Virus record (IMG/VR): IMGVR_UViG_3300029880_000015
Direction: 5' to 3' (one strand)
Source: a virus
Length of the DNA: 46,255 nt
Part shown: positions 4,581 through 30,961 of the stretch, piece by piece
Numbering within the stretch: the stretch's first letter is position 1
How the letters are laid out: each line of letters starts with the position of its first letter
The notes under the pieces: generated by a model
Seen by the model: the letters and a program-made list of their open reading frames with translations, nothing else
Database searches by the model: none
What the model was told of the DNA's origin: nothing
Program-made: the position numbers and the translations under genes

Positions 4581-4600
4581 TAATTAGTATCCAAAAAGTA

Positions 4601-4801
4601 TCAGCACACTTTGATTATTTTATTGTTTACTCGGCGGCTTAATCGTTTCGCCGTAGATATGCTCACGTTCATCTGTTCAGCGCAGTATTCAAGCGTGTAT
4701 TCTTTACATCTCAACCGAAACAATCTTTCTTCGTCCGGTGTAAAATTACACTCTATCAAGAATCTGTCTATATCTTTCTTTGTGAACACATATAACTTCA
4801 T
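4601..4801 (-). CDS. Small HTH protein resembling sigma-70 region 4 only (putative transcription regulator)
   Basis: 66 aa from the second ATG, 7 nt after AAGGGG. FTPDEERLFRLRCKEYTLEYCAEQMNVSISTAKRLSRRVNNKI matches the region-4/LuxR-type HTH pattern. No region 2 is present. Confidence 0.55.
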   Translation of the reverse strand: MKLYVFTKKDIDRFLIECNFTPDEERLFRLRCKEYTLEYCAEQMNVSISTAKRLSRRVNNKIIKVC

Positions 4802-4824
4802 GAGCATACCCCTTATTAATGCAA

Positions 4825-5130
4825 TTAACGTTGATTCTGTGCAAGATAATTTGTAAGCTTCTGTTTTGTTTTTTTTAATTCCTCCACATTATTCCCACTG
4901 ATCTGACTGTCCAACATGGTTGATAACACTTCCAGAATCAACGAATCACGTTCTGCAATCCTCTGAAGACTCTCGTAATCTCGTTTATCATGTTCTTCCA
5001 GTGTTTCTACTCGCTTATTGAGCCGGAATGCCGGAGTAATCCACTTAAAGATCACAGCTGCTGCCCCTCCGACAATGGACACCCCTCCGCAGATAGAGAG
5101 GAAAATCTGTACAAATTCTGATATGCTCAT
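4825..5130 (-). CDS. N-terminal TM plus coiled-coil protein
   Basis: 101 aa with AAAAGGAG SD. TM segment FLSICGGVSIVGGAAAVIF is followed by a charged helical region. Its start overlaps the upstream stop. Confidence 0.65.
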   Translation of the reverse strand: MSISEFVQIFLSICGGVSIVGGAAAVIFKWITPAFRLNKRVETLEEHDKRDYESLQRIAERDSLILEVLSTMLDSQISGNNVEELKKTKQKLTNYLAQNQR

Positions 5131-5513
5131 TTATTCTCCTTTTCCCAGTAATATACCGGGATCTCATTTCCGGAATCCCATGTATCGAAATATTTGCCAT
5201 CCTGCACTGTCACCACATGACCATCTATACAGAGAATGTATGTGCCTGTTGGATGATCTGCGCAAAAGTCATTGACTGTATAAATATATCGCTCCGACTG
5301 CTCAATCAGTTTGCGTCTGTACCCATGCTTATACAGATACGCTCCCCAGACATAATTTGCACTCGGCATATCTGATAGCGAGCAAGCATATACCATTAAT
5401 CCTGTAAATACCGTCTCCCAGTCAAGCTCTAACGCCTTGCATATCGCCCGGACAGCACAGTCACCTACACGATTCCCGGCTGGATTCGGATTAAAATATA
5501 CCCATCTTTCCAT
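5127..5513 (-). CDS. Hypothetical protein, possible papain-like Cys-His-Asp fold
   Basis: 128 aa. Contains NPNPAGNRVGDCAVRAI (Cys), IDGHVVTV (His) and FDTWD (Asp), in the order seen in C39/NlpC-like peptidases. The assignment is an inference only. Confidence 0.4.
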   Translation of the reverse strand: MERWVYFNPNPAGNRVGDCAVRAICKALELDWETVFTGLMVYACSLSDMPSANYVWGAYLYKHGYRRKLIEQSERYIYTVNDFCADHPTGTYILCIDGHVVTVQDGKYFDTWDSGNEIPVYYWEKENK

Positions 5514-18333: not shown

Positions 18334-20292
18334 TCACGAAAACGGAACACTTGTTCCAGTATTGGCAGGTATAAAATCAGCTTCAACATGCTCATTTTCC
18401 TGTTCGTCTTCAAGATCTTTTATATCAATAATCTTTACAGCAACAAGTCTCATTACGCTTCCCCCATCTCTTTTTATTACCGTATCCCTTTTTCCTGTAT
18501 GCTTAATTAATTCTCGATTAATCGCCCATGCTGAAAAGGCCTTTCTGGAGAATCCGTTGTTCTTTAGGAGATTTTCAAGAGGTTTCGGATAAAAGTATAC
18601 ATATACGTCTCCATACTCATCTGGAGTTTCCTTGAATCCCCATTGATCACAGCTGAATTGTGCATCAAAGTGTTGCCCGTACACGGAAAGACTTTCAAGA
18701 ATGAATTCATAGCATCTCTGACCTTCTGATACATCTTTTTTGCGTGTAGGAATATCTACGACGTCCTCGACTGTCAGCTCACGTCCATCCTTAAATATGA
18801 AATCTGTAGCTAATTTATCCGCTAGTAGAAGAGTAGATATAGCCATTACCTGCTTTGCCGGGAAATTATATCCATCAAAGCCCTTTTCAATCTCAGACTT
18901 CATTTCTTTCAGCTCATCCGGTGTAAATTTTTTTAGATTTCCAACAAATACTCTTCCAGCAAAACCATAATTTTTCATTACAGTGCTATTAATTTCTGCT
19001 GGATTCTCATAAATATCTTCGCAGCACTCAATTTCAATAATTCTGTTGATTGCTCCACCGGAATCTGCAAATTCTGAAATAGGATTCTCGCCGTTGCAAA
19101 TGGTTACATTACTCCATGTATTCTCCTTAGCTGCTCCGAGGTCCTTATTTGATCTTCCTTTCCCTTTACCGGAACAGAGATTGTAAATCAATGTTTCGTA
19201 GTTGTCCCGAATATATTGAGAAGCGTTCTTAGAGTCATCAAGGATCATCGGAAAGTTATTAAGCATGTCTGCCCTTGTCTCCAATGACGTATCTGTTGAC
19301 CGGAAATTCCCAACGTAGGATCCTGGCGACGGGTTTCCCCAGATAGATGCAGCTATGTTGATCGTTACTGTCTTGCCGCCGCCCGTCTGTCCGTAGAAAT
19401 CCACAATGAATGGCAGTGCGTCAAGTGGTTGCACAAGCACACTTGCAAAAGATGCCGCCAGTGCTATTCGTGGTTCTAATCGTCCGCACGACCGTAACTG
19501 TTTGGCCAGAGTCACCCACTTGAAGTAGTCTCCACTTTCCTGTATACTCTGGAATAGTGTTTTAAAGCGGTATTCGCCATCAAAAACGATTGAAAGGTCG
19601 TAAGGTACAAATGCATTGCCATGCCACCCTAACTTGCTCGTAGAGTGCTGTATGTCGATCATATCGGCATTGTACATTTCAACATCCGCCAGATACTTCA
19701 CAAGAAGCCTTGCATTCTCTGAGTTGACCTGCACACCGAACCTTGCAAGATTAGTTATCGCCCTGGAAGTCACAATGTCGATTTTTGGAACAGTTATTTC
19801 TGTCCAGTATCCATCTCTTTTAAAAGCCACTGTGATCTGTTCTTCGCCTGTCTCAATATTTTTCAGTCGACGTATCGGCATGATTGGATGGTGGCAAACA
19901 AGTTCTCTCGCCTTGGATGTTTCAGAAGAAAATATTCCGTTTTCTGTAGCTATCCAGCTGCCACAAGCCATGTTTGGATATTCTTTTCCAATATCATCCT
20001 CATAAAAGTTTGTGATATTTTCAACTAACTGCATAGAACGATTTACTTTTTCTTCCTTTTCCTTGTCCTGTTCTGCTTTCTGGAATTCTTTTATGAATTC
20101 CTCGGCTATGCTTTTTGCTCTTACACTCTTCGCCCTGTCCATTAACTTAAATTTAGCTTCCGAACGGTCGATTTTACTTTTTATTGAAAAAAGTTCTTCA
20201 TACAGTTGCTTCTGCATAAAATCATTTGCTTGCAAATTTTCAATATTTTCAAGAATGCTTCTCACCTCCTGCCTTAGCTGACAATATTTCAT
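18334..20292 (-). CDS. Replicative helicase-like P-loop protein (DUF927/MCM-like or P4/D5-type)
   Basis: About 652 aa. FYGQTGGGKTVT (Walker A) and FPMILDDS (Walker B), with a large N-terminal domain. It follows the CHC2 zinc-finger gene. The start is uncertain (ATG 20292 or TTG 20313). Confidence 0.65.
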   Translation of the reverse strand: MKYCQLRQEVRSILENIENLQANDFMQKQLYEELFSIKSKIDRSEAKFKLMDRAKSVRAKSIAEEFIKEFQKAEQDKEKEEKVNRSMQLVENITNFYEDDIGKEYPNMACGSWIATENGIFSSETSKARELVCHHPIMPIRRLKNIETGEEQITVAFKRDGYWTEITVPKIDIVTSRAITNLARFGVQVNSENARLLVKYLADVEMYNADMIDIQHSTSKLGWHGNAFVPYDLSIVFDGEYRFKTLFQSIQESGDYFKWVTLAKQLRSCGRLEPRIALAASFASVLVQPLDALPFIVDFYGQTGGGKTVTINIAASIWGNPSPGSYVGNFRSTDTSLETRADMLNNFPMILDDSKNASQYIRDNYETLIYNLCSGKGKGRSNKDLGAAKENTWSNVTICNGENPISEFADSGGAINRIIEIECCEDIYENPAEINSTVMKNYGFAGRVFVGNLKKFTPDELKEMKSEIEKGFDGYNFPAKQVMAISTLLLADKLATDFIFKDGRELTVEDVVDIPTRKKDVSEGQRCYEFILESLSVYGQHFDAQFSCDQWGFKETPDEYGDVYVYFYPKPLENLLKNNGFSRKAFSAWAINRELIKHTGKRDTVIKRDGGSVMRLVAVKIIDIKDLEDEQENEHVEADFIPANTGTSVPFS

Positions 20293-24189: not shown

Positions 24190-25011
24190 CTATTTTGCTT
24201 CTTCTGCAAAATGTTTCTCCATGAGATCGGCAATCATCAAGTATTCTTCGGCGATTTTGCCTTTTCTGGTATTTTTAACCTGTTCACGGAACTCTGGAAT
24301 TGTTCCATAGAAGCAGCCGCAAGATACTTTAACTTGTTTGTCCTTACATCTGAAGAATGTAGTTGTGCGGAATTGAGTACCGAATCCATGAATAGTTGCG
24401 TAATCTGCATTGCCGGACACCCTTGCATTGCCGGACACCCTTGCATTGCCGGACACCCTTGCATTGCCGAACACCTCTGCATTGCCGGACACCCATGCAT
24501 TGTCGAACACCCTTGCATTGTCGAACACCCTTGCATTGCCGAACGCCCATGCATTGCCGAACACCCTTGCATTGCCGGACACCCTTGCATTGCCGGACAC
24601 CCTTGCATTGCCGAACACCTCTGCATTGCCGAACACCCTTGCATTGCCGAACACCCATGCATTGTCGAACACCCTTGCATTGTCGAACACCCTTGCATTG
24701 CCGGACACCCATGCATTGCCGGACACCCTTGCATTGCCGAACACCTCTGCATTGCCGAACACCTCTGCATTGCCGAACACCCATGCATTGTCGAACACCC
24801 TTGCATTGCCGGACACCCTTGCATTGCCGAACACCTCTGCATTGCCGAACACCCATGCATCGCCGGACTGGTTTACATTTTCTTTTTTTTCTACCCATCC
24901 GCCAGTTTCTCCGGCTTCTACATTCCCAAATGATATGAGCGCCTTGATTCGAAAAAGCTTCTTCCCGAAAATGTTAATTTTGGTTTCTGATGTTAATTCA
25001 AATTTCTTCAT
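24190..25011 (-). CDS. Hexapeptide-repeat (beta-helix) protein with unique N- and C-terminal domains
   Basis: 273 aa with AAGGAGGAAAAC SD. About 26 tandem (G/D)NA(R/W/E)V(F/S) hexapeptides lie between an N-terminal ~50 aa (MKKFELTSETKINIFGKKLFRIKALISFGNVEAGETGGWVEKKENV) and a C-terminal ~70 aa (...CGCFYGTIPEFREQV...). Confidence 0.8.
   Translation of the reverse strand: MKKFELTSETKINIFGKKLFRIKALISFGNVEAGETGGWVEKKENVNQSGDAWVFGNAEVFGNARVSGNARVFDNAWVFGNAEVFGNAEVFGNARVSGNAWVSGNARVFDNARVFDNAWVFGNARVFGNAEVFGNARVSGNARVSGNARVFGNAWAFGNARVFDNARVFDNAWVSGNAEVFGNARVSGNARVSGNARVSGNADYATIHGFGTQFRTTTFFRCKDKQVKVSCGCFYGTIPEFREQVKNTRKGKIAEEYLMIADLMEKHFAEEAK
24404..24870. repeat. Tandem 18-bp repeat array, about 26 units (coding)
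   Basis: Plus-strand unit gcattgcc(g/a)(g/a)acacc(c/t)(t/a/c)t, repeated head to tail. All six frames lack stop codons across the array. Confidence 0.95.
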
Positions 25012-25834: not shown

Positions 25835-26047
25835 CTACTTAACTTCTGGCAACCTTGGTTCAAGAAACTTGTCGGTCCCAACGGATAACGCCCCACAAAT
25901 TAGTTCGTATTCATCGAAATCTAATCTGCGATTTCCATTGAGAGAAAGATTGAGTTTCTGAACAGGAATTCCAGTTCTGTTGGCGACAAATGTCTGTGTT
26001 ATGCCGTTGTTTTCAAGGTATGACTTGATTTTCTTACCAACGCACAT
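25835..26047 (-). CDS. Cro-like XRE-family HTH protein
   Basis: 70 aa. IKSYLENNGITQTFVANRTGIPVQKLNLSLNG is an HTH_3 pattern. The gene is divergent from the repressor gene. Confidence 0.8.
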   Translation of the reverse strand: MCVGKKIKSYLENNGITQTFVANRTGIPVQKLNLSLNGNRRLDFDEYELICGALSVGTDKFLEPRLPEVK

Positions 26048-26073: not shown

Positions 26074-26147
26074 TTCGTTCCTATCGAACAATTATAGTAT
26101 AACTTCGAAATATCCGAATGTCAAGAAGAAGTTTCGAAAAAATCGAA
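26074..26147. promoter_or_regulatory. Genetic-switch operators: three TTCG-N7-CGAA palindromes plus divergent promoters
   Basis: Sites at 26074-88, 26104-18 and 26133-47, with centres 30 and 29 bp apart. TTGACA (26157-62) and TATTAT serve the plus-strand repressor. A minus-strand TATAAT (26091-96) serves cro. Confidence 0.6.
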
Positions 26148-26209
26148 ATTATTTTATTGACAGTCCGAAATTTTTATATTATTATTAGTTATGAAGGGAG
26201 GAAACGATA

Positions 26210-26554
26210 ATGACATTTGGCGAGAAAGTCAAGCAAGCCAGAACGGTAAAGAAGCTGACCCAGAAACAACTTGCAGAAAAAATCAATGCAAAGCACAATT
26301 CAATTAGTGACTGGGAAAAAGATAAGTGTAAGCCAGACATGGACACTATTGAACTTCTATGTGGCGTTTTGGAAGTAACACCGACATACCTCATGGGTTC
26401 TAAAAGCGATGATGATTATGCAACCATAATTGGAAATCTTATGTCGGAACCTGACATCTTAGATTTTATCGAGGAATACAAAGCACTCGATAAAGAAGAT
26501 AAGAAAGCAATAAAACAAATAGTTTCATCGCTAAACAAAAGGAGCAAGGGTTAA
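26210..26554 (+). CDS. CI-like XRE-family repressor (no S24 peptidase domain)
   Basis: 114 aa with GGGAGGAAACGATA SD. FGEKVKQARTVKKLTQKQLAEKINAKHNSISDWEKDK is an HTH_3 pattern. Confidence 0.8.
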   Translation: MTFGEKVKQARTVKKLTQKQLAEKINAKHNSISDWEKDKCKPDMDTIELLCGVLEVTPTYLMGSKSDDDYATIIGNLMSEPDILDFIEEYKALDKEDKKAIKQIVSSLNKRSKG

Positions 26555-26667
26555 TCCCCTTGCTTCTTTGATTTCAGATATTTAATAAGAATCGTATAGA
26601 CAAATTTTAACTTGCCCTCATTTTCAGTATTCTCTATCATTTCAATAATTTCCTTTTTGTAATCCAT
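26551..26667 (-). CDS. 38-aa hypothetical protein
   Basis: The ATG lies 7 nt after GGAGGGA. Sequence MDYKKEIIEMIENTENEGKLKFVYTILIKYLKSKKQGD. Its 3' end overlaps the repressor stop. Confidence 0.4.
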   Translation of the reverse strand: MDYKKEIIEMIENTENEGKLKFVYTILIKYLKSKKQGD

Positions 26668-26733
26668 TTTCCGTCCCTCCAATATCACGCAAGCAAGAAC
26701 ATTTGTTCTCTTTTATTCCATTATACCCTCTTC

Positions 26734-27057
26734 TCAGCGATATAGAACGGACTGGATCATACTTCTTGCCCTCTGCTTAAAAAGTGTTCCCTCCATTTGT
26801 CTTGAACGATTGAAAAAGAAATGACATGTACATTCCGCAGAAATATTGTTGCTTTTCTTCACAACAAATGACTGCTGCTCTGCTTCAGATACAACCGCCT
26901 GTGTATAATTATGTATCACATATTGATTGTTGGCACTTGTCTTAATAATCACTTCGGAATCTGTTGGATCAATACTCTCACATAGCGGCGCATGCACAGA
27001 AAATGTGAGCATTATTCCGAACAGAAAAAATATAACCAGCTTTTTTATTCCTTTCAT
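26734..27057 (-). CDS. Small secreted protein (signal peptide)
   Basis: 107 aa with GGGAGGA SD. MKGIKKLVIFFLFGIMLTFSVHA is a signal-peptide-like N-terminus. It has its own extended -10 (TGTATAAT) upstream. Confidence 0.6.
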   Translation of the reverse strand: MKGIKKLVIFFLFGIMLTFSVHAPLCESIDPTDSEVIIKTSANNQYVIHNYTQAVVSEAEQQSFVVKKSNNISAECTCHFFFNRSRQMEGTLFKQRARSMIQSVLYR

Positions 27058-27185: not shown

Positions 27186-27932
27186 TCAGTCGTCCCAGAT
27201 TGAGCGCTGTCCGTTTATCATATAGATTTCGTCCTGGAGATACAGGGGTGCGTCATATCGTGCGATCACGTTCAAGGCAGAGTCACACTGGTTTCGCTTG
27301 ATTGACTTGTAGGAGCGCACACGGAAGTTCGCTTTTAAGTCTGCATAGATGTTACTGTATACTCGCTGCCTCATTGACCTGTCTTGGTATGCGTTCGAGC
27401 CTTTTCCACCTAGGATATCCACGCCACGCTTGCGTACTGCCTCTGTGATCCTGTCGGCTTCAATTGGAAGGATTGGCAAATCAAATTCCAGGCGTTCAAG
27501 TTCCTGCCGGACAATATCCACTTTCTTCTCAACCTGGGTTACTCTCTTATCTACTACGATAACGGCTTGCAGTTCTTTGGAAATGCCAGAAAGGGCAAGT
27601 TCGTTTCTCTTCTGGAAATATTCATCCACCAGAGCGTCATATACATCCCACGCCTTGTCAGTGTTTAATGACTTTGCGTGAAGAAAAGCACCTTTCTGTG
27701 TCCAAAGGTAGAGTTTGTTGAGTCTTGACGAATCGTCAAAATGACGTTTCGTTTTAAACTCTTTTAATTCTTCACCCTCAAGGTAAATAAAATGTTTGCC
27801 CTCAATGTATCTTTCTTTATTTCTGCTGAAATTTTTTTAAATAATTTTAGTATCAGTTTCGTATGCTTCCGCAATCTGCTGTGTAGTAAGAACTAAAGTT
27901 CCATTAAATTCAACTTTTTGTAATCCGTTCAT
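27186..27932 (-). pseudogene. ORF6N/ORF6C-type antirepressor-like gene interrupted by one in-frame TAA
   Basis: ATG at 27932 gives MNGLQKVEFNGTLVLTTQQIAEAYETDTKII-TAA(27837-39)-KNFSRNKERYIEGKHFIYLEGEELKEFK...WDVYDALVDEYFQKRN.... Both halves are in the same frame and together match the ORF6N+ORF6C layout. Confidence 0.6.
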
Positions 27933-27961
27933 AATTTTTTTATCCTTTCTATAAAAAAATA

Positions 27962-27990
27962 TTGATTTTTTACGGAAAGTGTGTTATCAT
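27962..27990 (+). promoter_or_regulatory. Strong plus-strand promoter facing into the RHH gene
   Basis: TTGATT (27962-67), a 17-nt spacer ending in TGT, then TATCAT (27985-90), with an A/T-rich upstream region. No plus-strand ORF lies downstream. Confidence 0.55.
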
Positions 27991-28052
27991 ACAGACACTC
28001 GTGAAAGAGTGATTTATAAAAATAACACAACTTTCCATAAGGGCATATTGGT

Positions 28053-28217
28053 CTATGCCTTGGTAAGTTTTGCTTGTGCGACAATTCCACGGCGCACAAT
28101 TTCGGCTTTAGATACGCCCTGTTTGCGCGCTGTGGTGACAAGCAAATCATAAATTTCCTGTTCCATTCTGATTTGGAAATATGTGTTTTTTGTAATCTCT
28201 TTTTTAGGTCTACCCAT
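28053..28217 (-). CDS. Ribbon-helix-helix (Arc/CopG-like) protein, 54 aa (below the ORF-track cutoff)
   Basis: The ATG lies 5 nt after AAAGGAG. Sequence MGRPKKEITKNTYFQIRMEQEIYDLLVTTARKQGVSKAEIVRRGIVAQAKLTKA. It replaces the implausible 27929..28270 ORF in another frame. Confidence 0.6.
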   Translation of the reverse strand: MGRPKKEITKNTYFQIRMEQEIYDLLVTTARKQGVSKAEIVRRGIVAQAKLTKA

Positions 28218-28241
28218 AGTCTCCTTTCTGTCGTAAATTCC

Positions 28242-28270
28242 ATTTTATTGTAATGACAACTAAATGTCAA
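28242..28270 (-). promoter_or_regulatory. Promoter with embedded palindromic operator for the RHH2/antirepressor unit
   Basis: Minus strand: TTGACA (28265-70), a 17-nt spacer, then TAAAAT (28242-47). The palindrome TGACA-N6-TGTCA (28254-69) overlaps the -35 and spacer. Confidence 0.55.
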
Positions 28271-28305
28271 TTTACTCTAAGTATATAAATTATTGTAATT
28301 GGTTA

Positions 28306-28343
28306 GGTGCCCGCTTTTATGCAGGCACCATTTTCTTATTTTA
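28306..28343 (+). terminator. Plus-oriented rho-independent terminator
   Basis: GGTGCC-cgcttttatgca-GGCACC followed by ATTTTCTTATTTT. The minus-strand reading has no U-tract. Confidence 0.55.
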
Positions 28344-28533
28344 TGCTCTTTTCAAGCATATTCTTGATTTCGATAATTTCCTGCAAGATTCTATCTTCCT
28401 TATCTGCACGAATGTCTCCATCAATTAATCTTCGGATATAGTCGTTTTTGCTCACCCCCATTTCCTTTGCCTTTTCACCAACAAAATCAATTTGTTCCTC
28501 TGTGAGTCTTAACGTAAATGTTTTGATACTCAT
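28336..28533 (-). CDS. Ribbon-helix-helix (CopG/Arc/Mnt-like) protein, 65 aa
   Basis: Start MSIKTFTLRLTEEQIDFVGEKAKEMGVSKNDYIRRLI at 28533 after GAAAGGAGAAG. The longer ORF-track N-terminus is unlikely to be translated. Confidence 0.65.
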   Translation of the reverse strand: MSIKTFTLRLTEEQIDFVGEKAKEMGVSKNDYIRRLIDGDIRADKEDRILQEIIEIKNMLEKSIK

Positions 28534-28553
28534 TGGCTTCTCCTTTCTTTTAT

Positions 28554-28607
28554 GAAGTCGTATTGACTTCTTGTGTTTAATATAGCATGAAGTCATTTAG
28601 AAGTCAA
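28554..28607 (-). promoter_or_regulatory. Promoter and GAAGTC-repeat operators upstream of RHH gene 1
   Basis: Minus strand: TTGACT (28602-07), a 17-nt spacer, then TATATT (28579-84). Inverted repeat GAAGTC-N5-GACTTC at 28554-70. Direct GAAGTCA copies at 28589-95 and 28600-06, 11 bp apart. Confidence 0.55.
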
Positions 28608-28714
28608 GTATTATTTTTGTCGAAATCTGTCGAGTTATTATAAATTATTATGTTTTATTTTATTTTGCGCTGTGGTACAATCAGATAAAATAAACCATAT
28701 GAGGAGGATTTTCT

Positions 28715-29251
28715 ATGGAAAAGACCAAAAAGTGCAAATATTGCAAAACAGAGATTCCGGCAGACGCTAAAGTGTGTCCGCAGTGCCGGAAGAAATTAAA
28801 AGGTGGAAAGTTTAAGTGGATTCTGCTTACCCTTATCATCCTTTGTGCTATAGGTGCGGTGACAGGCGGAAGTAATAGTAATTCCAGTACGAAATCTACA
28901 AATTCTACATCAAGTAAAAAAGAAGATATACCAAAAGAATACACTTCCGTATCAGTTAATGATATGATGGCAGATCTTGATAACAATGCCATGGGAGCGT
29001 CTGATAAATACAAAGATAAATATCTTGAAATTACTGGAAAACTTACAAACATTGACGCTTCTGGAAAGTATATTGACTTGATGGCTGATGGAGACTTTGA
29101 GATTATCGGAGTTCAATGCTACATAAAAAATGATGAACAAAAAACAAAAGTAGCTTCCATGACCAAAGGAGAGACAGTTACTTTAAAAGGGAAATGTACA
29201 GATGTTGGAGAAGTCTTTGGATATTCTCTTGATATTGATGAAATAGAATAA
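28715..29251 (+). CDS. Zinc-ribbon / TM / OB-fold-like membrane protein (prophage-expressed moron)
   Basis: 178 aa with GAGGAGGA SD. CKYCKTEIPADAKVCPQCR, TM segment WILLTLIILCAIGAV, a Ser/Asn-rich linker, and a C-terminal domain resembling the tRNA_anti-like OB fold. Confidence 0.65.
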   Translation: MEKTKKCKYCKTEIPADAKVCPQCRKKLKGGKFKWILLTLIILCAIGAVTGGSNSNSSTKSTNSTSSKKEDIPKEYTSVSVNDMMADLDNNAMGASDKYKDKYLEITGKLTNIDASGKYIDLMADGDFEIIGVQCYIKNDEQKTKVASMTKGETVTLKGKCTDVGEVFGYSLDIDEIE

Positions 29252-29386: not shown

Positions 29387-30961
29387 ATGAATGAATCAGT
29401 ATGCATCTATCTAAGGAAATCCAGAGCCGATCGGGAAGCTGAGGCGCACGGAGAGGGCGAAACGCTTGCCAGGCATGAACGGATCTTGTTAGATCTTGCA
29501 AAGAAAAAAGAGTACATTGTAGGTGCAATTTACCGCGAAGTGGTATCTGGAGAAACTATCGCCGACCGTCCTGTCATGCAGCAACTTCTGCATGAGGTAG
29601 AATCCGGTATGTGGGATGGCGTTCTGGTTGTGGAAGTGGAACGTCTTGCCAGAGGTGATACAATTGACCAAGGTGTTGTGTCAAGGGCTTTCCAGTATTC
29701 TGACACGAAAATTATTACCCCCACAAAAATATATGATCCAAACAATGAATTTGATGAAGAATATTTTGAGTTTGGGCTATTTATGAGCCGCAGAGAGTAT
29801 AAAACCATCAAGCGCCGACTGAACGCTGGAAGAATCTCATCGGTCAAAGAGGGGAAATACTGTGGTAACAAACCACCTTACGGATACGAAAGAGTAAAAC
29901 TCGAAAAAGAAAAAGGCTATACTCTCCGACCTGTTCCGACTCAAGCTGAGATTGTAAAAATGATCTACACCTGGTATTCCGGTGATGGCTGCGAACAAAT
30001 CGGAGTTGCGAAGATTGCACGGAAATTAAATGAAATGGGAATAGAATCTGCACTGGGCGGTGACTGGACTCCTGCCAGTATACAGGGAATTCTGACAAAT
30101 CCGGTATACATCGGAAAAATACGATGGAATGGGAGAAAAACAGTGAAGACTATACAGAATGGTCAAGTAATTAAGACACGCCCTCGATCAAAAGATACTC
30201 TTATTTGTAATGGATTACATCCGGCTGTTATATCAGAAGATCTGTATAATTCCGTCCAGGAAATACGAAAAAAGAACCCGCCTCGCCCAGTTAGTATAGC
30301 AAACTCGATTCGTAATCCACTTGCCGGAATTGTCTATTGCAGCAAATGTGGTCGCGCCATGGTTCGCCGCCCTTATCAAAAGCGCAGGCAGGAAGATACC
30401 CTCATGTGTCCTTATACATCTTGCCCCACAGCAAGCAGCAAGTTGTCTTTGGTTGAAAAATCTGTGATTGATGGAATTAGGGAGATTGTGGAGGAATATA
30501 AGTTAAACAATGATATTAATGCATCTTCAAAGGATATTGATTGCGTAATAACCTCTAAACAAAATCTCATACATGAGAAAGAAAACGAGCTGGAAAGCTT
30601 GAACTCTCAGAAAGCAAAACAATACGACCTACTCGAACAGGGTATCTATACCACGGAGATTTTTCTTGAACGTGCTAAAACAATATCCGCATCTATCCAG
30701 TCATGCTCCGACACTATAGAAAAATTAAAAGAAGAAATCAAGCATGACGAGAACATTATAAAACAACGGTCGGATTTTATCCCACGTTGCGAAGAGCTAC
30801 TTGATAACTATTGGGGCCTTGACACGGAATCCAAGAATAAAATGCTTAAGAGTTTAATCGAAAAGGTTACATACTCAAAAGATACCAAAAACGCTTACGG
30901 GAAAGGCAATGAGATTGGTTTTCAGCTCGACATTTTCCCCAAAATCCAGAAAAATAATTAA
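29387..30961 (+). CDS. int: Large serine recombinase (integrase)
   Basis: 524 aa. N-terminal resolvase domain (VCIYLRKSRAD...VVEVERLARGD), a recombinase domain, a zinc ribbon (YCSKCGRAM...CPYTSCP) and a C-terminal coiled coil. Confidence 0.9.
   Translation: MNESVCIYLRKSRADREAEAHGEGETLARHERILLDLAKKKEYIVGAIYREVVSGETIADRPVMQQLLHEVESGMWDGVLVVEVERLARGDTIDQGVVSRAFQYSDTKIITPTKIYDPNNEFDEEYFEFGLFMSRREYKTIKRRLNAGRISSVKEGKYCGNKPPYGYERVKLEKEKGYTLRPVPTQAEIVKMIYTWYSGDGCEQIGVAKIARKLNEMGIESALGGDWTPASIQGILTNPVYIGKIRWNGRKTVKTIQNGQVIKTRPRSKDTLICNGLHPAVISEDLYNSVQEIRKKNPPRPVSIANSIRNPLAGIVYCSKCGRAMVRRPYQKRRQEDTLMCPYTSCPTASSKLSLVEKSVIDGIREIVEEYKLNNDINASSKDIDCVITSKQNLIHEKENELESLNSQKAKQYDLLEQGIYTTEIFLERAKTISASIQSCSDTIEKLKEEIKHDENIIKQRSDFIPRCEELLDNYWGLDTESKNKMLKSLIEKVTYSKDTKNAYGKGNEIGFQLDIFPKIQKNN

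Follow-up and report, generated by a model that had tools for sequence, protein, structure and literature searches.

A putative antirepressor-control cassette, analogous to P22 immI, in a temperate phage of gut Clostridia

Among textbook circuits, secondary immunity based on an antirepressor, on ribbon-helix-helix (RHH) repressors and on antisense RNA is, to our knowledge, known in detail essentially only from phage P22 and its relatives. Positions 27186-28612 of the viral genome IMGVR_UViG_3300029880_000015 (IMG/VR; 46,255 nt, the whole of which we call the window) raise the question of whether a phage of a Gram-positive host carries a counterpart, since an initial annotation, made from the sequence alone, had read this segment as a P22 immI-like module of two RHH genes (RHH1 and RHH2), an antirepressor-like gene (ant) and a convergent antisense RNA. 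The immI region of P22 itself, with its genes mnt, arc, ant and sar, has been described (PMC2629481, PMC11016777). All the elements of that reading (promoter P1 and its repeats, RHH1, promoter P2 and its palindrome, RHH2, ant, the antisense promoter and a terminator) are present where it had placed them, and on balance we judge it probable, if not strongly so, that a temperate phage of gut Clostridia carries here an accessory cassette for antirepressor control, functionally analogous to P22 immI, which keeps ant off by RHH repression, an antisense RNA and refolding of the mRNA.

The cassette, its repressors and its relatives

The genes and promoters of the cassette, together with their repeats, are as follows.

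28579-28607, minus strand: promoter P1, TTGACT-17-TATATT with a TG-extended -10, scoring 10/12; predicted to drive RHH1
28554-28606: four TGACTTC-type half-sites at P1, at 28600-06, 28589-95, 28564-70 (inverted, GAAGTCA) and 28554-60 (CGACTTC)
28336-28533, minus strand: RHH1, 65 aa
28290-99 and 28245-54: two copies of ATTACAATAA in the P2 region, a candidate RHH2 site
28254-28269: palindrome TGACA-N6-TGTCA at P2
28242-28270, minus strand: promoter P2, TTGACA-17-TAAAAT, scoring 11/12; predicted to drive RHH2 and ant
28053-28217, minus strand: RHH2, 54 aa, Arc-like with an N-terminal GRP arm, directly upstream of ant
27186-27932, minus strand: ant, ORF6N/ORF6C antirepressor-like (ORF6N E 3e-19, ORF6C E 4e-30)

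RHH1, RHH2 and ant form a separable cassette between the integrase and superinfection-exclusion (Sie)-like genes on one side and the XRE repressor gene on the other, so that the idea of a self-contained unit for the control of ant with two RHH proteins is borne out. The genome MT835739, whose flanking genes are 90-97% similar, lacks exactly RHH1-RHH2-ant and keeps a small open reading frame (ORF) and a membrane protein. Relatives of Ant are encoded at 68 viral loci, denoted here by L numbers. Group A (L002-L009) has the same RHH1-RHH2-ant arrangement as the window, and in group B (L014-L024, L059) both RHH genes and the leader of ant are retained, with a different Ant N-domain and the same ORF6C domain. 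L010, L111, L116 and L120 have tyrosine integrases and repressors of other kinds; their first RHH gene, which may be similar or different, is followed by RHH2 (80-85% identity) and ant. The cassette was found in the lysogeny region of phages only. The nonsense allele of ant in the window (below) and the close relative with no cassette show the cassette to be dispensable and actively turning over.

RHH1 scores 32.6 bits against the NikA-like profile (cut-off 27) and matches RHH_1 with an E of 0.001, and its best sequence match among solved structures is Arc (E 0.03); on these matches it is a ribbon-helix-helix protein of the NikA-like/CopG type, and it is the variable "specificity" repressor of the cassette. 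P1 is conserved in groups A and B and in L116. Exact copies of TGACTTC number eight in the window, three of them within 43 bp at P1, where the direct repeats at 28600-06 and 28589-95 lie 11 bp apart over the -35 and the spacer and the other two half-sites form a palindrome, GAAGTC-N5-GACTTC, just past the -10, at the expected transcript start. In L116, which has an RHH1 homologue, all four half-sites are kept despite different flanking bases. In L010 and L111, which have a different first RHH gene, the repeats are replaced by two copies of TGCCAGACA, and in L120, with yet another first RHH gene, by two copies of TTGTGGATACATA. Since the type of repeat co-varies with the type of RHH1, there is good indirect evidence for autoregulation: the half-sites are a candidate RHH1 operator, through which RHH1 probably represses P1.

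RHH2 shares P2 with ant, as an Arc-like gene immediately upstream of ant in the same operon, and is constant across the cassette family, unlike RHH1. It matches phrog_876 ("transcriptional repressor") with an E of 2.9e-8 and RHH_1 below threshold (E 0.004; 17.4 vs a cut-off of 20.5). In Foldseek, the best PDB matches of its AlphaFold2 model (pLDDT 70) are Arc (1par, the first), CopG and VapB/MazE, and nearly all of the top matches are RHH proteins; the N-terminal strand appears as a helix in this monomer model. The family is small, with 16 clusters at >=70% identity in a search of 5.8 billion proteins. Two homologues on short metagenome contigs, P0012 (L126) and P0013 (L125), come from gene calls that read a TAG stop as Gln, which looks like the genetic-code choice of the source pipeline and not biology.

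The hexamers of P2 and TCATTACAATAAAAT are conserved in all variants. The TGACA-N6-TGTCA palindrome, which had been offered as the operator at P2, is present in the window and is lost in group B, where TGTCA becomes TATCA, and in the L010-type relatives, with TTTCA in L010; as the palindrome is not conserved, its role as an RHH2 operator is unsupported. P2 has two copies of the sequence ATTACAAT(AA), which the L010-type phages also have in their leader loop, in the form GTCATTACAA; it is a better candidate for the RHH2 site than the palindrome, still a weak one.

When its internal stop codon is read through, ant encodes a protein in which ORF6N and ORF6C both lie far above the curated cut-offs, and the frame is intact in all relatives. 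These are its only Pfam domains, none being a P22 Ant domain, and the PHROG "Ant" families match it weakly (2e-13 to 3e-5). A sequence search for solved structures of ORF6N/ORF6C returned none, and the closest cultured relatives are the ORF6 proteins of TP901-1 and bIL285 (40% identity). In the window ant is a pseudogene, with an in-frame TAA at 27837-27839 in place of codon 32 (Gln32 to stop). This codon is CAA in all 32 copies fetched from related loci, many of which are duplicate fetches of the same contigs, and the TAA, a single C-to-T nonsense change or a sequencing error, is unique to the window among the copies compared. Recoding of the TAA as a sense codon was rejected because the relatives all have CAA and the other genes of the window are open in code 11.

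The N-terminal domain of Ant is exchangeable. In group B and L125 it is Rha-like in appearance, as judged by eye, and L126 and L120 carry a further type on the same leader, which in L120 is AntA; L026-L033, like L126, have a further type compared with the ORF6N of the window. The exchange falls precisely at the start codon, with the upstream leader and ORF6C nearly unchanged, and is by sequence comparison a clean case of domain shuffling at a fixed junction. L120 also has a second antirepressor-type gene (4591-5220; AntA and ANT domains) in its early operon, besides the RHH-controlled one.

Could RHH2 and ant instead be a toxin-antitoxin (TA)-like or abortive-infection pair, in which an RHH antitoxin and autorepressor is coupled to a growth-inhibiting ORF6C protein? 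Repressor-antirepressor pairs have already been noted as TA-like (PMC2701414). An ORF6C-domain protein of pneumococcal phage MM1 is toxic on overexpression, and toxicity on overexpression is given for pneumococcal Bro (Bro-N::ORF6C) and Ant (PMC4257102), which would fit tight, layered repression of ant and the existence of a nonsense allele. The knocked-out ant of the window and the lack of co-variation between Ant type and repressor type would also suit such a pair. Against this, RHH2, at 54 aa, consists of the DNA-binding domain alone and lacks a C-terminal tail to bind a toxin, the two genes are uncoupled by a 120-nt regulatory leader, and the cassette is confined to phage lysogeny regions. 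No toxin family was matched by domain profiles, the PADLOC library not having been searched. We regard the TA explanation as very unlikely and retain that of an antirepressor under repressor control.

A probable antisense promoter in the RHH2-ant leader

If RHH2 and ant are transcribed together from P2, what is the leader between them for? It contains a promoter on the opposite strand, and the following features bear on the RNA that would arise from it.

27933-28052, minus strand: structured RHH2-ant leader, 120 nt, with a 5' arm (28022-28036), an inner hairpin (27996-28011) and a 3' arm (27974-27987) complementary to the Shine-Dalgarno (SD) sequence of ant (the anti-SD arm)
27966-27979 with 27945-27958: alternative helix of the leader; the SD of ant is at 27943-27949
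27962-27990, plus strand: antisense promoter, TTGATT-17-TATCAT with TG, scoring 9/12; predicted start ~27997
27997-28071, plus strand: predicted short antisense RNA of ~74 nt, a 5' hairpin plus a terminator hairpin, with read-through to ~28343 (~345 nt)
28040-28071, plus strand: hairpin 1, over the RHH2 stop codon (hairpin 28040-28061, tail GGTAAGTTTT); terminator-like in the scan
28306-28343, plus strand: terminator behind RHH1, GGTGCCCGC-TTTTAT-GCAGGCACC followed by ATTTTCTTATTTT (hairpin 28306-28329)

The antisense promoter is convergent with P2, which faces it from ~280 bp away. A promoter scan gave 14 matches in the window vs 12.0 +/- 3.5 in shuffled sequences, which is not above chance, and promoter calls were therefore weighted by conservation. 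The block ATGATAACACACTTTCYGTAARAAATCAATAT, which holds the antisense promoter, has both hexamers invariant in 12 of the 13 leader variants (L120 has TACCAT), and the 30-60 nt upstream of the block are wholly replaced between variants. The -35 sits in the unpaired loop of one of the two folds of the leader (fold B, below), and thus its conservation is not explained by pairing.

A TG-extended antisense promoter recurs, at the same place, in three or four further unrelated RHH-to-ant leaders, which we call the sister leaders:

L026/L032: TTGCCA-18-TATAAT, scoring 11/12
L028: TTGAAA-17-TAGAAT, scoring 10/12
L121: TTGAAA-17-TATAAT, scoring 11/12
L123: TTGACT-17-TATAAT, scoring 11/12

Each has exactly one antisense promoter, whose -35 stands 20-35 nt ahead of the following start codon, and no sense promoter. 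Four independent families were counted, because L028 and L121 share 13 nt around the -35. Shuffled spacers gave a TG-extended antisense match in 0.9-2.5% of trials each, for a joint chance of the order of 1e-7, and none was found at that place in the 13 ant contexts that have no upstream RHH gene. The proteins encoded upstream of the sister leaders are of the RHH type by Pfam, except that of L028, which has no Pfam match at all. Antisense promoters upstream of ant in L011 and L034-37 look like the ordinary promoters of a divergent gene and were left out of the count. With the relatives in view, an antisense RNA gains considerably in credibility over what the single sequence allowed, and transcription from this promoter is probable; the convergent promoter that had been proposed for the RHH-ant spacer is thus conserved in the family and recurs in other RHH-ant cassettes.

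How long the RNA would be depends on two hairpins. The one behind RHH1, at 28306, folds on the plus strand with -15.4 kcal/mol (z -3.3) and the tail AUUUUCUUAUUUU, and has no U-tract on the minus strand; owing to a plus-strand C.A mismatch, it escaped the terminator rule of our scan, which did pick up the equivalent hairpins of L010 and L120 in the plus orientation. Hairpins that differ from it in sequence and agree with it in position and orientation occur in L116, L010/L111, L120, L125/L127 and L026. The plus orientation, claimed from the window, is therefore kept in five sequence versions and in all variants. Hairpin 1, which the initial annotation did not list, lies at 28040-28061 and corresponds in position to a recurrent feature: in L026, L028, L121 and L123 an A-run is followed by a hairpin next to the RHH stop codon, which on the antisense strand is a reverse terminator. 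The antisense RNAs implied for these sister cassettes are about 65-75 nt long, counted from the antisense -10.

Two lengths were accordingly weighed. As first proposed, a single RNA of ~345 nt would run from 27997 to the 28306-28343 terminator. Its main action would then be on RHH2 and P2, through pairing with the mRNA of RHH2 and transcriptional collision at P2, and the translation of ant would not be its target. The terminator behind RHH1 is indeed the sole strong plus-oriented one downstream of the promoter, with a conserved orientation, and P2 and the antisense promoter do face each other. The U-tract of hairpin 1, moreover, is poor, and L116 has this hairpin in degenerate form or not at all. 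The sister cassettes with a single RHH gene would nevertheless end their RNA at the RHH stop, after 65-75 nt and never over a promoter, and the longer RNA leaves both the start inside the leader loop and the recurrent layout of SD mimic, anti-SD and SD without a role. We therefore consider a sole ~345-nt RNA with RHH2 as its target unlikely. By analogy with the sister cassettes the main form is more likely ~74 nt; hairpin 1 is weak, and a short form of ~74 nt plus read-through to ~28340 (345 nt) is therefore expected, so that the longer RNA survives as a read-through product and the likely target moves from RHH2 to the fold of the ant leader. Two mechanical ORFs of 57 and 59 aa exist on the plus strand. 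The start codon of one precedes the predicted transcription start, the other has no ribosome site visible in the sequence, and both were set aside as shadows of the RHH2 frame.

Alternative leader folds and a proposed switch

Three inverted repeats (I4, I10 and I16) were found in the leader, which can adopt two exclusive folds. In fold A, GGAAAGUUGUGUUAU (28036-28022) pairs with AUAACACACUUUCC (27987-27974) on the sense strand, with -29.2 kcal/mol and a z of -7.6. In fold B, which corresponds to I4, the 3' arm pairs with the ribosome site of ant, CUUUCCGUAAAAAA with UUUUUUAUAGAAAG; its energy in the window is -9.1 kcal/mol, and the other variants, which gain a pairing of CAUGAU with AUUAUG, reach -13 to -16. 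The leader base pairs were compared by hand, in a comparison that rests on about six sequence types; viral-contig scans and one metagenome scan with a conserved 27-mer returned only the leader types A, B and L010. One pair of fold A varies between G-C (the window and group A), G.U (group B) and A-U (L010), and a neighbouring U.G becomes C-G. A 10-nt sequence of L010, GAACAGAAAG, is directly repeated as the 5' arm and the SD region.

The loop-proximal end of the 3' arm has the antisense -10 as its complement, and an antisense RNA started ~7 nt past this -10 would have the inner hairpin at its beginning. The two predicted folds are conserved, and, provided that the start is indeed ~7 nt after the -10, the countertranscript would be complementary to the upstream arm alone. 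When the antisense target was blocked in constrained folding, fold B formed at about -9 to -16 kcal/mol, and the probability that the SD is unpaired fell from 0.86 to 0.31 in the window; in L123, L028 and L032 it was 0.00-0.09 under the same block. The layout of SD mimic, anti-SD and SD, in which the loop holds the antisense -10, is the same in these three leaders of unrelated sequence.

What the sequences show, namely the genes with their domains, the motifs, their conservation and the two kinds of fold, suggests the following working, in which antisense transcription, the 3' ends of the RNAs, the switch, operator occupancy and antirepressor activity are all predicted. The strong P1 would make RHH1, which would repress P1 through the four half-sites over the -35, the spacer and the region after the -10; as there is no sense-oriented terminator after RHH1, transcripts from P1 probably run into the next genes. 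P2 would transcribe RHH2 and ant as one operon, whose leader would by default form the long hairpin of 5' arm and 3' arm and leave the ant ribosome site open. From the convergent promoter embedded in the 3' arm, an antisense RNA would start inside the loop. It would be the complement of the loop and of the 5' arm, and not of the 3' arm, and by binding the mRNA it would release the 3' arm (CUUUCYGUAARAAA) to pair with UUUUUU..AGAAAG, and in most variants with the AUG too, closing the ribosome site. Most antisense transcripts would end at the weak hairpin over the RHH2 stop (~74 nt) and the remainder at the strong terminator behind RHH1 (~345 nt), which may also shield RHH1 and P1 and the Sie-like and integrase genes. 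Ant would thus be kept off by three layers, namely repression by RHH proteins, the antisense RNA and refolding of the mRNA.

The conserved leader might also work without any functional antisense RNA, as a purely cis-acting hairpin that stabilizes the mRNA, serves as a processing site or attenuates transcription or translation between RHH2 and ant, the promoter-like hexamers being a by-product of conserved RNA structure in AT-rich sequence. A 9/12 match means little in AT-rich DNA, and pairing constrains most of the block, as ATGATA pairs with the 5' arm or AUUAUG, and CUUUCYG with the SD. The weakened -10 of L120 and the sense-oriented, terminator-like hairpin made there by the 5' arm also favour it. 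What speaks against such a leader is that the -35 is invariant though it lies in an unpaired loop, that TG-extended antisense promoters occur in three or four unrelated leaders at a chance of ~1-2% each, and that reverse-oriented terminators would be purposeless with no antisense transcript to end. On this evidence we find the cis-only leader distinctly unlikely, less so only than a TA pair.

Several observations count against the antisense switch that we prefer, beyond the weakness of hairpin 1 as a terminator. The antisense promoter scores just 9/12, chance matches of that kind are common, and the 3'-arm block might owe its conservation to RNA structure only. A C at 27974, present in the window and in group A, makes a C.A mismatch that weakens fold B (-9.1 vs ~-15 kcal/mol). 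With longer flanks, the SD of group B and L010 is already weakly paired in the free state, so the switch is not uniform, and L026 shows no clear switch in the fold computation. In L120, where the -10 is weakened, the 5' arm makes a local, sense-oriented terminator-like hairpin. The evidence from wobble pairs is mixed: sense-strand G.U pairs in group B and L116 favour the mRNA as the structured strand, and the C.A mismatches of L120 would be G.U on the antisense strand. As for the protein, antirepressor activity is for ORF6N/ORF6C proteins an annotation and for Ant putative, and the Ant N-domain and the phage repressor vary independently among relatives, so that the resident XRE repressor is a putative target. 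That the RHH-ant cassettes of Clostridia phages share a set of undescribed, sar-sized antisense RNAs that act by freeing an anti-SD arm, and not by masking the ribosome site, is a tentative proposal that falls short of being probable. If true, the same logic would operate across dissimilar leaders (the window family, L123, L028/L121 and L032) as a Gram-positive counterpart of immI that works through an RNA switch, and it offers a concrete, testable RNA mechanism in the antisense-triggered release of the anti-SD arm.

Known systems and the phage setting

The P22 comparison holds for the list of parts. As in P22 immI, there are two RHH repressors and an antirepressor gene, with the Arc-like gene upstream of ant in one operon, and the RHH-ant spacer has a convergent promoter that would make a small antisense RNA, predicted here at ~74 nt; sar is 68-69 nt long. 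Both cassettes are dispensable and moron-like, lie beside a gene of the superinfection-exclusion type and have degraded ant alleles in nature. The analogy ends at the details. Unlike P22 Ant, the Ant of the window is by Pfam an ORF6N/ORF6C protein with no match to P22 Ant domains. Unlike mnt, RHH1 is co-directional and not divergent and has its own promoter and operators, the four sites at 28554-28606 being at P1 with none seen at P2. Unlike sar, the predicted RNA does not overlap the ant ribosome site and would act by releasing the anti-SD arm. The cassette is placed between int and cI and not in a late operon, and the host is a Gram-positive anaerobe.

Other systems share single aspects. ORF6 of the Lactococcus phages TP901-1 and bIL285 and the ORF6C proteins of Wbeta-like Bacillus phages combine ORF6N with ORF6C, are 38-40% identical to Ant over the full length and are annotated "anti-repressor"; unlike ant, ORF6 of TP901-1 and bIL285 lies in the early lytic operon just after mor/cro, without RHH genes. 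Countertranscript attenuation is known from the Gram-positive plasmids pT181 and pIP501/pAMbeta1, with a translational variant in RNAI of pSK41. In pT181, pIP501 and pSK41, as proposed here, the antisense RNA starts inside the leader and upstream pairing lets a downstream inhibitory hairpin form, by way of two exclusive folds. Unlike that of pT181 and pIP501, the inhibitory hairpin of the window has no U-tract and would block the SD and AUG instead of ending transcription, and the gene controlled is a phage ant and not rep. In the immI region of P1 and P7, icd-ant is controlled by c4 RNA, which comes from the same strand by processing and has repeated target sites on which it acts in trans. 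The likeness is that a small RNA acting on a leader upstream of ant keeps an antirepressor silent; unlike the cassette of the window, immI of P1 and P7 has no RHH proteins and draws its RNA from the same strand.

No paper describing such a cassette in Firmicute phages was found in open-access text. The P22-type list of parts occurs in uncultured temperate phages of human-gut Clostridia, in several cassettes, and since these parts recur with unrelated leaders the design would seem to be old or repeatedly selected. It bears on the induction and cross-induction of gut prophages and on the need for tight control of ORF6C-type genes.

The window reads as a temperate phage genome in the unintegrated gene order. 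The sources of its relatives are human-gut viromes and metagenomes, and a genome scan found only distant prophages, in metagenome-assembled genomes of Clostridia and Lachnospiraceae. The genes around the cassette are as follows.

~46 kb down to 31 kb, minus strand: late genes
29387-30961, plus strand: large serine recombinase (Resolvase, Recombinase and Zn_ribbon_recom domains)
28715-29251, plus strand: zinc-ribbon/tRNA_anti-like membrane protein, whose best PHROG match is a superinfection-exclusion-like family
26734-27057, minus strand: signal-peptide protein, 107 aa, next after ant; matches no family
26551-26667, minus strand: 38-aa ORF (MDYKKEIIEMIEN...)
26210-26554, plus strand: XRE repressor, without a peptidase domain
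25835-26047, minus strand: cro-like gene, after which the early genes come next

The signal-peptide protein could be a surface or exclusion moron; at its place the relatives, including the one without the cassette, have another membrane protein. Rfam has no family within 26.4-29.4 kb, with merely two sub-threshold matches near 26.5 kb.

A perfect core of the Firmicute LexA (Cheo) box, AGAACAAATGTTCT, lies at 26695-26710 on the minus strand, ~12 nt past a TATAAT and 30 nt ahead of the 38-aa ORF, which is convergent with the XRE repressor gene and is kept in the relative without the cassette. In L028, L032 and L120 the GAAC/GTTC arms of this box are kept and the central four bases vary, and in the L010-type phages its position is occupied by GAACAAATGTTT. 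By analogy with Gifsy phages or Tum of phage 186, the 38-aa ORF may be an SOS-controlled small inducer or antirepressor. The window has three perfect Cheo cores vs 0.6 expected; the other two GAAC-N4-GTTC cores, at 27890-27901 (codons 11-14 of ant) and 18345-18356 (in a 659-aa ORF), are probably coding coincidences. Control of P1, P2 or the antisense promoter by LexA was considered and dropped, as none of them has a Cheo box with <=1 mismatch.

A three-copy cluster of YCGAAAT repeats in the cI-cro intergenic region (26105-26171) suggests operators for XRE and Cro. A lone copy lies at 28620-28626, ~13 nt upstream of the -35 of P1, and is missing in L116, which has another repressor. Further into the early region, a 273-aa ORF (24190-25011, minus strand) consists of nearly nothing but tandem hexapeptide repeats of the form GNA[RWE]V[FS], and the opposite strand is open there too.

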